Virus record (IMG/VR): IMGVR_UViG_3300037762_000224
Location: 1 to 44,026 of that record
Reading direction: 5' to 3' (one strand)
DNA length: 44,026 nt
Source: a virus
Lineage: Duplodnaviria > Caudoviricetes
The translations under genes were made by a program, and so were the position numbers. Position 1 is the stretch's first letter; the number at the start of each line of letters is the position of its first letter. Below are positions 12,184 to 15,788 of the stretch, one piece after another. Below the pieces are notes generated by a model, which had not been told where the DNA came from, did not search any database, and saw only the letters and a program-made list of their open reading frames with translations.

Positions 12184-12269
12184 GTCCGGCACCATATCCG
12201 GATGTGTCCGGAACCGTCAACCCCCTGTCAGTTGACACTCCCGGACATGCCCGGACATAGTGGGTGTTA
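12183..12269. promoter_or_regulatory. Divergent lysis/lysogeny promoters with CCGGA operator repeats
   Basis: Minus: TTGACG (12220-12215)-N18-TATGGT (12196-12191)-N7-ATG. Plus: TTGACA (12232-12237)-N18-CATAGT (12256-12261)-N7-ATG. Five CCGG(A)-containing repeats. Confidence 0.8.
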
Positions 12270-13175: not shown

Positions 13176-14576
13176 TTACTCCCACACTGGCCGCAACGCC
13201 GCCAGCCGTTCAGCCACCGGTACGACGTGCCCGTCGGGGGTGCGGCCGGGTGCGACGGGGATGGGGCAGTTGGCGGCCAGTCGGATGACCTCACGGCGAC
13301 CGGGAATGTCGAGCACGGCCCAGCCGGCCGCCATGTCTTTGGCGGTGATCCCGGCGCCGCCGGCGAGGCGTTGGGCGCCCGCGAGGCGGGCTTCGATCTC
13401 GGCCCGCCGCGCCTTCAACACGGCGGTGGCGGCGGTGTGGGCGTCGTCGCCCATCACCCCGCTGGCCCACTGCTGTGCCGAGAGGATCTCGCGGCGGTCG
13501 ATCTCGTCGAGCTCAGCCTTGGCCGCGCCCATGGCCGGGTCGCCGTAGGCGAGGAAGGCATCCAACACGGCGACGAAGATGGGCCGCTCGAGCCAGGCGC
13601 CGACCGTGTCGGCCACGTACGTTTCGGTGGGCCCGGCGACGATGGAGGTGCGCCCGCAGCCTTTCCCGGTGGTGGTCTCGACCAGGTGGCACCGGTACTG
13701 GGCCTGCCGCCGGTGGCTGTACCAGTACAGTTTCCGGCCGCAGTGGTGGCAGGCCAACAGCCCGGTCAACAGGTGTTTGTCGGAGGGCGGGCGGCCGGCA
13801 CGGCGGCCCGCGGTGTCGGCCCGCAGGAGTTCCCATGTGCCGCGGTCGAGGATGGCGGGCCAGGTGGCTTCGCCGACGATCTGGCCGTGGTAGGCGCGCA
13901 GCCCGGCGATGTGAGGCGAGGTGAGGACGCGGCGCAGGGTGCGGATCTCCCACCGCTGCCCGCTGGTGTTGCGTACCCCGTTGGCGTTCAACGTTTCGAC
14001 CTGTGAGCGCCACGACCCGCCGGCCAGGATGCCCGCCGCCACCTCACGGAGCGCATTGGCTTCCTCTGGTACGAGGGCGGTGCGTTTCTCGGTGAGGCCG
14101 AACGGCCGGCGGCCCCCGCCACTGTGTCGGCCCTGGGCAGCGCGTTCCTTCTTCGCCCGGGACACGAGTTCCCCGATGCGTTCGACTTGTTGGCGGGCAA
14201 CGGCGCCAAGGATGCGGGCGACCATGCGGCCCGAAGGGGTCGACAGGTCGACATCACCCGCTTGGACGGTGGCAACATCGGCACCCACGGCCTGGACGGT
14301 ATCGACGAAGCGTTCCAGGTCGCGGGGGTGCCGGTAGAGCCGGTCGGGGTGATAGGCGATGACAGTCGTTAGTTGACCGGCGGCGATGTCGGCGAGGAGC
14401 CGTTCGTACTCGGGGCGCCGTTTGCCGTGGTATGCCGACACGTCGTTGTCGACGTATTCGGCGAGGTCGGTCCAGCCGCGTTGGGCGGCGAGGGCGCGGC
14501 AGTCGGCGAGCTGGCGGGCGACACCCTCGCCATCCTGGCGATCCAAACTGATCCGCGCATAGATGCCAGCGGTCAC
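13176..14576 (-). CDS. int: Large serine recombinase (integrase)
   Basis: YARIS catalytic Ser, DNDVSA, RPEYERLL, DRLYR, recombinase domain, LLTGLLACHHCG Zn ribbon. Confidence 0.95.
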   Translation of the reverse strand: MTAGIYARISLDRQDGEGVARQLADCRALAAQRGWTDLAEYVDNDVSAYHGKRRPEYERLLADIAAGQLTTVIAYHPDRLYRHPRDLERFVDTVQAVGADVATVQAGDVDLSTPSGRMVARILGAVARQQVERIGELVSRAKKERAAQGRHSGGGRRPFGLTEKRTALVPEEANALREVAAGILAGGSWRSQVETLNANGVRNTSGQRWEIRTLRRVLTSPHIAGLRAYHGQIVGEATWPAILDRGTWELLRADTAGRRAGRPPSDKHLLTGLLACHHCGRKLYWYSHRRQAQYRCHLVETTTGKGCGRTSIVAGPTETYVADTVGAWLERPIFVAVLDAFLAYGDPAMGAAKAELDEIDRREILSAQQWASGVMGDDAHTAATAVLKARRAEIEARLAGAQRLAGGAGITAKDMAAGWAVLDIPGRREVIRLAANCPIPVAPGRTPDGHVVPVAERLAALRPVWE

Positions 14577-14864: not shown

Positions 14865-15175
14865 CTGCGGTCCTTGCTTGCGTCGAGTACGGAGGCGATG
14901 TAGCTACCGACCTCATGCGTGACCTCTTCCCACTCATGGGAAGCCATGCCGGCCAGGTTGTCGCGGATGTTCCGTAGGGCGGACCGAAGCAAGGTGTTGT
15001 TGTCGAGGGCGTGCCCGACCCACGGCTTCCAGTCCAGTTCGATCGAGGTCTTGAGCCGGTTGACCTCGTCTTGTAGTCCTTCCGCCGACTCAGTCACGGG
15101 GTCCGGTGCGAAGGTGACGTGTAGGTCGTCGCCTCGGTGGAGCTTGAGGTCGTGGGTTGTCATGGCCGCCATCAT
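14861..15175 (-). CDS. Hypothetical protein
   Basis: Helical-looking ORF heading the minus-strand unit that continues into the integrase. Confidence 0.65.
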   Translation of the reverse strand: MMAAMTTHDLKLHRGDDLHVTFAPDPVTESAEGLQDEVNRLKTSIELDWKPWVGHALDNNTLLRSALRNIRDNLAGMASHEWEEVTHEVGSYIASVLDASKDRR

Positions 15176-15234
15176 GCACTCATGTACCCCACCTGTCTAG
15201 TTCGTCTTGACCAACAGTCCCATACAGGTACACC

Positions 15235-15700
15235 CCCTGGTGATGGAAACGCAGGTCACCGCAGGGTAGGCGACGCGCAGAGGCCCCCGCCCACTCACCT
15301 TCCGGTATACGCCGGTCAGCGGGTACGGGGGCCTTGCGAACCCGGCCCCCAGAAGAGGACGGGTGGGAAGTCTTCCCTGAGACGATCGGAATGGTAGTGG
15401 GCGTGAGACGGGATTGCCTACCCGCATCATCGCCCAACCTGGTCGGTTGCAGGACTGCGACGAACCGAGAGTGTGCTGCGAAGCAACCCGGCCCCGAGGC
15501 GCTACCCCCGTGGGAAACTCACGTCGTCTCACCGGATCGGCCTGACGAGTAGAGCAGCGGATCCTCTCGTACCTTGTCCCTCCCCGGTTGGAGGGAGGGC
15601 ATTCAGTCACCCACACCTCACCCATGCGCATGGGCAAGGTCCACTACCGGAGGCGCACTATGAACGCGCCGGATGACGAAGTCAAGGAGACACCCGTCAC
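15235..15700 (+). ncRNA. Candidate large structured non-coding RNA
   Basis: Long intergenic region with no credible ORF; nested long-range helices with G-U pairs on the plus strand; promoter-like TTGACC-N16-TACACC at 15207-15234. Confidence 0.55.
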
Positions 15701-15704
15701 CTGG

Positions 15705-15788
15705 GACGTTTGGCCCTTGACGTTGGCGGTACGGTGAGGTTGCCCGGGTGTGGTGTCCGGGACCCCTAGCGTGAGGAGAGCGAACATG
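15705..15788 (+). promoter_or_regulatory. Promoter/operator cassette, copy 2
   Basis: GACGTTTGGCCCTTGACG...CCCGGGTGTGGTGTCCGGGACCCCTAGCGTGAGGAGAG..ATG; matches 899-802 on the minus strand. Confidence 0.65.

Follow-up and report, generated by a model that had tools for sequence, protein, structure and literature searches.

A predicted minus-strand RNA beside the integrase unit of a temperate phage is an enlarged, sub-threshold relative of manA

The window, the whole stretch of DNA analysed here, comprises the 44,026 nucleotides of the linear virus record IMGVR_UViG_3300037762_000224 and carries genes for terminase, portal, capsid, tape measure and endolysin. A serine integrase is encoded at 13176-14576 and adjoins divergent HTH genes; together with the structural and lysis genes, this indicated that the source phage is temperate and tailed. 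Its terminase shared ~40% identity with the terminases of Arthrobacter, Rhodococcus and Gordonia phages, which weakly suggests an actinobacterial host. Leaderless promoters and U-poor terminators are actinobacterial traits. The RNA locus is flanked by the ORF-ORF-integrase unit, which runs leftward, and by an operon of unknown genes that runs rightward, as the first-pass annotation had placed it. No tRNA was found in the window scan, and no syntenic loci were recovered via the neighbour proteins. A homologue of the RNA was absent from 50 records (of 81 capsid- or integrase-related ones, most records being fragments), and the RNA thus looks like accessory cargo. Elsewhere in the window, at 12190-12260, divergent promoters (+12232 TTGACA-18-CATAGT and -12220 TTGACG-18-TATGGT) lie between two HTH genes and are overlapped by repeated CCGGACA boxes; this is likely the lysis-lysogeny switch with its operators.

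In the gap that holds the locus, where the first-pass annotation saw no convincing ORF, the codon-position GC bias of the neighbours was absent, with GC at positions 1/2/3 of 0.70/0.62/0.60 in one gap frame against 0.74/0.54/0.85 in the integrase. The first-pass annotation had proposed a multi-domain non-coding RNA of the phage, which the present analysis supports, and the complementary stretches that it listed are present where it placed them. It had read them as a nested fold on the plus strand. Complementary stems can be read on either strand, so the strand needs other evidence, and here the minus strand folded far better. Over 15700-15207 its z was -4.09 (0 of 60 shuffles as stable), against -1.55 for the plus strand at 15207-15700 and -0.51 at 15207-15760. 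The minus-strand z was -3.05 for 15648-15272 and -2.73 for 15648-15393; across the core, full and first-pass spans the minus strand gave -2.7 to -4.1 and the plus strand -0.9 to -1.9. In addition, the minus-strand G-U pairs in P1, P2, P8 and P9 would become A-C on the plus strand. The nested plus-strand fold had an energy of -184.1 against -206.1 for the free plus-strand MFE, a cost of 22 kcal/mol, and was infeasible as listed, its helices 15632-40 and 15639-48 sharing 2 nt. Among its helices, 15393-400/15641-48 (the mirror of P0) and the hairpin 15276-338 (the mirror of the terminator-like hairpin) survived in the comparative model and the others were lost. The alternative fold suggested between 15378-85 and 15524-31 was unsupported, 15524-31 being the 3' arm of the recurring P6 hairpin. 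The caveat that GC-rich DNA forms stems by chance was answered in part: perfect Watson-Crick stems of at least 8 bp were enriched (7 observed against a shuffle mean of 2.1-2.4, reached in 0-1 of 40 shuffles), but the plus strand was not unusually stable.

The features of the locus are given in Table 1. Two promoters were called by the scan, both on the minus strand (2 in 2 kb against 0.3 expected); the plus-strand promoter annotated earlier, TTGACC-N16-TACACC, was not among them and misses the T at position 6 of the -10. The RNA would start at about 15648, which is a G and the first base of P0. The -10 hexamer of its promoter recurs identically at +12232, before an HTH gene. A TGAC-N3-GTCA palindrome over the -35 was at chance level. 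P0 was not seen in the flanks of the relatives described below; it is therefore specific to the window and has no covariation support. The trailer comprises 58 nt between P0 and the terminator-like hairpin. The hairpin was not called by the U-tract terminator scan. Of 29 records searched, two near-identical ones from related phages each contained three copies of its arm and tail, and one copy sits just past a stop codon, which led us to read it as a probable U-poor terminator. Between this hairpin and the integrase-unit promoter, an imperfect inverted repeat at 15231-15268 has a size that fits a candidate serine-integrase attP or an operator.

Table 1. Predicted features at the RNA locus (positions in the window)
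Feature	Position	Strand	Remarks
Predicted sigma70/sigmaA-type promoter, TTGACT-17-CATAGT	15657..15685	-	promoter scan
P0 5' strand, GGUAGUGG	15641..15648	-	8-bp clamp with 15400-15393; probability 0.93 in core fold
P1 hairpin	15615..15640	-	11 bp, 2 G-U; probability 0.97
P2 5' strand GUGGG and conserved manA motif UGACUGAAU	15600..15614	-	pairs with 15407-15403
P3 hairpin and AAGGU motif	15571..15599	-	loop L3 = CCAACC, 15591-15586
P4 stem, GAGAG/CUCUC	15467..15568	-	encloses remodelled 92-nt middle domain
P6 hairpin, AG/GA internal loop	15548-15524	-	probability 0.96-0.97
P8, 7-bp stem, 3x4 internal loop, 4-bp stem	15427..15463	-	GGUUGG 15439-15434 complements L3
P9 hairpin, 8-nt loop UAGGCAAU, then P2 3' strand	15403..15425	-	manA match and covariation
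P0 3' strand (15400-15393) and 3' trailer with two small hairpins	15335..15400	-	prediction only
Terminator-like hairpin, 9-bp outer stem, U-poor tail UCUGCGCGU	15272..15334	-	probability 0.99; predicted 3' end
Predicted promoter of ORF-ORF-integrase unit, TAGACA-17-CATGAT	15171..15199	-	ATG at 15163, leaderless spacing

The comparative fold with P0 and the terminator lay 3.6 kcal/mol above the free MFE, the L3 pairing being uncounted. The earlier size of 470-500 nt was too large: the structured body has 255 nt and the predicted transcript ~375 nt, while the conserved body spans 212-256 nt. The gene product is likely a stand-alone folded RNA of ~255-375 bases. Two direct repeats were observed inside it. 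In the first, 15339-15352 equals 15485-15498 (GGGGCCGGGUU twice); the second, 15444-15453 and 15585-15594, places CAACCG in both L3 and L8, which would allow the two loops to share pairing partners.

The manA RNA was described as a riboswitch candidate in 2010 (PMC2864571) and has remained an orphan. The gathering cut-off of its Rfam family (RF01745) is 55.2 bits, and a gathering-mode scan of the window gave no matches. In E-value mode, manA matched 15639→15398 on the minus strand with 38.4 bits (E 2.6e-8; 751 nt searched), 17 bits below the cut-off, and the next-best match had an E of 1.4. The match covered model positions 1-192, and the three hairpins in the middle were bypassed as local ends; the span in the window is 242 nt, against 192 positions in the model. 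The conserved manA motifs GUGACUGAAU ... AAGGU and GGUA...AAUCC were present, and the two-motif pattern was held by none of 100 shuffles. The core helices P1, P2, P3, P4, P8 and P9 were all found, with covariation. Together with P6 they occur in the manA order, P8 with its 3x4 internal loop; L3 complements the strand before the P8 3' arm, and the RNA is phage-borne, as in manA.

The middle domain, in contrast to manA, is remodelled, and it was not stable by itself (z -0.31). The canonical P5 (GUGGUG) and P7 (ACCA) loops were unrecognisable in it, and the UGGU/ACCA kiss between L5 and L7 is missing. The P6 hairpin was kept, but its loop is AUC and not GNRA. The P6 motif was common to L338, L346, L341 and L299 (four of the five relatives examined) and to the canonical manA loci L004 and L045, and was not found in L288, L024, L023 and L075. 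An RCC in the P8 region of all eight members could give an L8-L9 core of only 2 bp, CC/GG (by eye, L9 being fixed by the search). The window RNA further differs from manA in its 8-nt L9, the extra P0 clamp and the trailer. It resides in a GC-rich temperate siphophage beside a serine integrase, whereas manA is found in marine T4-like cyanophages or Photobacterium, and its branch occurs stand-alone or in tRNA arrays, whereas manA occupies potential 5' UTRs of metabolic, chaperone or photosynthesis genes. Such a 5' UTR context was absent from the window, where the terminator-like hairpin and then the separately promoted integrase unit follow. Since the RNA fell short of the cut-off and had neither the L5-L7 pairing nor the 5' UTR context, it was classed as a manA variant and not as a member. 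The Rfam E-value search thus found a sub-threshold, full-length homologue, and, as judged from sequence, the minus-strand RNA is an enlarged relative of manA and not the novel family first annotated. Further sub-threshold manA-like RNAs with other P9 loops were observed at L023:1374-1568 (minus; 42.7 bits) and L075:1999-2255 (30.4 bits).

When viral contigs were scanned for the 14-nt P9 motif, 92 loci were obtained, and eight of these represent seven distinct relatives carried by other phages. Six of the eight loci (five of them distinct) were selected by visual inspection, and L281 and L321 were added by a descriptor search of 474 sources, which returned 12 loci besides the window; the reversed-sequence control of that search was unfair, as the loci had been chosen for the motif. 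Four other loci from it (L296, L308, L356 and L395) were dropped after folding. The Rfam scan of the relatives covered the five distinct ones other than L281 and L321: four matched manA below the cut-off (41.2, 36.7, 24.4 and 23.8 bits), and L288/L315 had no manA match at E<=1. The eight members (window plus seven) shared 51-71% pairwise identity in global alignment, and the P2-closed cores of the relatives measured 207-289 nt. Against cultured phages, blastn gave one 34-nt chance match for the window and none for L338 and L341. Recurrent UUAGC(G) loops in P1 and the middle domain were observed in L338, L346, L341, L281 and L321, and were absent in the window RNA.

Exact 5' motif patterns yielded no close relative in any search. 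The viral contigs gave 48 loci, with canonical manA in five of the 20 scanned plus the sub-threshold L023; a further viral search gave 18, none related; metagenomes gave 23, of which only L075 was an AT-rich manA-like RNA with a different loop; and GTDB gave 48, none convincing by eye. A relaxed two-motif scan returned ten loci, three of them known already and seven dropped, and an extended P9 scan returned 121 (98 distinct), mainly tRNA-like and with no new member. Among 401 genomes from the phylum of the Gordonia locus, there were seven motif matches and none with the 5' motif. Model R1 was dominated by the search motif and was left out of the results, and MAFFT alignments, which misalign the helices, were excluded from the counts. 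Two other elements were noted in passing. A structured intergenic element of ~175 nt with several nested stems (L174, G007:C1:22527-22715, minus; the same in G003) lies in a related phage between two hairpin-plus-UCUGCGCGU motifs and had no Rfam match at E<=0.5. A conserved stretch ending GTTGAC-TGTGGGTA-NNN-AATCCCAC, unrelated to manA and possibly another structured RNA, occurred in a family of viral contigs (L352, L366, L369, L386, L398, L409, L414, L421, L423 and others).

The fold is supported by covariation. In the first six members, 138 of 144 cells in P2, P3a, P4, P8a and P9 were standard pairs, and 17 of the 24 pairs changed on both sides; with eight members, 179 of 192 cells were paired and 19 pairs changed on both sides. 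When strands were crossed between members as a control, 56% were paired. For P3a, P4 and P8a the best-fitting 5' partners were chosen; in P2 and P9, whose positions are fixed, 59 of 60 cells were paired. The counts include L321 without correction, although the automatic selection likely put its P4 and P8a in the wrong place. The second pair of P9 is C-G in the window and U-A or G-C in the relatives. The conservation of L9 is circular because the shared L9 is the search motif. A 5' hairpin stood at the place of P1 in all eight members, and in the window none of the 24 pairs compared was broken and the L3 pairing was complete at 6 bp.

The L3 pairing was first noticed in six members (6/6; 1 of 720 permutations as good) and held in the two found afterwards. 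In all eight, L3 complements the 6 nt directly before the P8a 3' arm with 5-6 bp, and the letters differ: CCAACC/GGUUGG in the window, GCUACG/UGUAGC in L341 and GUCAAU/AUUGAC in L321. The mean was 5.75 bp against 3.36 bp for crossed strands, equalled by 1 of 40,320 permutations. This strong covariation indicated that the L3-P8 contact is under selection. The pairing was also found in five near-identical canonical manA loci. The structure lines of the 2010 manA alignment mark L5-L7 (SS_cons_1) and L8-L9 (SS_cons_2) and not L3-P8; visual inspection of the rows reveals the L3 pair (GGCA/UGCC versus GGAA/UUCC), and in two NZ_ rows whose P8 is short the corresponding sequences are UUCAGCG and AGCUGA (PMC2864571). 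Section 8 of a recent preprint describes an intermolecular L3-L8' kiss in manA_pho34_A767 (10.64898/2026.07.01.735769). We infer from the Rfam order and the NZ_ rows, by which the loop numbers were mapped, that the covarying L3-P8 pair corresponds to that contact. The covariation itself fits pairing within or between molecules equally.

A promoter was found in four of the eight members, ending 30-42 nt before P2 and sigma70-like, and a tRNA lies upstream of the other four. Those of L341, L299 and L288 resemble the window promoter and end 30-38 nt before P2. L338 stands at the end of an array of 34 tRNAs and L346 at the end of one of 33, and L281 and L321 lie between tRNA-Asn and tRNA-Cys, with tRNA-Cys directly downstream. 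Six members have a strong downstream hairpin. No common theme emerged from the neighbour proteins of five relatives, which comprised terminase and the products of oppositely oriented lysis genes and of unknown genes. Four relatives lie in phage tRNA arrays, and in two of these a tRNA follows immediately; such locations speak against the riboswitch label.

According to the preprint, marine manA RNAs form closed oligomers by cryo-EM, RNA-only cages seen in vitro only, and both of its manA pentamers use the L5-L7 kiss (10.64898/2026.07.01.735769). GOLLD and ROOL are phage or prophage ncRNAs, often near tRNA islands, that form cages joined by kissing loops (10.1101/2024.12.08.627333). The likeness of the window RNA to these two is a functional analogy only: it is far shorter (GOLLD is often >800 nt) and has a different fold. 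The scale of GOLLD or ROOL annotated earlier does not apply to a body of 255 nt, and the several hundred nt of continuous structure typical of them compare with 212-256 nt of conserved body here. No Rfam match to GOLLD, ROOL or OLE was obtained in the window at E<=10.

We propose, as slightly more probable than otherwise, that this is a stand-alone manA-type RNA which acts in trans and self-assembles through L3-P8 contacts into closed oligomers. The host-type promoter would drive a separate minus-strand transcript from ~15648 to ~15272, which may be expressed from the prophage, and its manA-type core would fold over 15640→15403. In the relatives of the tRNA arrays, the RNA would be released from tRNA precursors. 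It would then work in trans as a structural RNA, with the L3-P8 loop pairs made between molecules, clipping copies into closed oligomers. By analogy with GOLLD and ROOL, our guess at its job is a scaffold or container made alongside the phage tRNAs. Because the RNA has neither the L5-L7 kiss nor the GNRA L6 found in the solved pentamers, the assembly may differ or fail.

The same RNA could instead act as a monomer, the L3 pairing forming an internal pseudoknot, and bind a protein, the ribosome or a metabolite. This is somewhat unlikely in our judgement, even though the missing kiss and GNRA loop, the extra parts (P0 clamp and trailer) and a covariation that suits an internal pair equally well all agree with it; the corresponding contact is intermolecular in manA_pho34_A767, if the loop mapping is right, and every manA variant mentioned in the passages of the preprint formed oligomers (10.64898/2026.07.01.735769).

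A riboswitch-like leader, in which P0 sequesters 15403-15387 and thereby controls read-through into the ORF-ORF-integrase unit, is improbable. Segment 15403-15387 can pair with the terminator at 15304-15288 (17-nt inverted repeat I1, duplex -25 kcal/mol), the integrase unit is on the same strand, and manA has been rated a probable riboswitch (PMC2864571). However, the antiterminator fold is worse by 19.7 kcal/mol, a separate promoter is predicted for the integrase unit, and P0 is absent in the relatives, of which two are flanked by tRNAs and one is directed into the end of a lysis operon. Two further readings, a novel RNA of ~500 nt on the plus strand and a minus-strand RNA lengthened so that 15698-91/15365-58 closes it, would agree with the outer helix, whose 8 bp are perfect whichever strand is read, and with the drop of the minus-strand z when the upstream 50 nt are added (-3.98 vs -2.73). 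Both are very unlikely, given the plus-strand z of -0.5 to -1.6, the 22 kcal/mol by which the first-pass fold exceeds the MFE, the A-C mismatches that would replace the G-U pairs, relatives that begin at P1, and an outer helix that could form only if transcription began before the called promoter. A decaying remnant or chance GC-rich stems with nothing expressed would agree with the 50 capsid-related records, mostly fragments, that carry no homologue, and is scarcely credible against the intact compared pairs and L3 pairing and the promoter and terminator-like ends.

The proposed trans-acting, self-assembling RNA bears on the manA class as a whole. Members wedged between tRNA genes are unexplained by the cis-regulatory model, and the strong L3-P8 covariation was unannotated in the 2010 structure lines. 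The Rfam cut-off misses the class outside marine phages, and no description of such a branch was found in the literature searched, subscription papers and preprint supplements aside. As a broader and rather doubtful extension, we speculated that GC-rich temperate phages and phages with tRNA arrays may share a long manA branch, never a leader but either stand-alone or excised from tRNA precursors, that would have dropped L5-L7 and adopted a new L3-P8 cage geometry that would hold or shield tRNAs during lysogeny or infection. The natural variants without L5-L7 offer a test of which interface the assembly needs.
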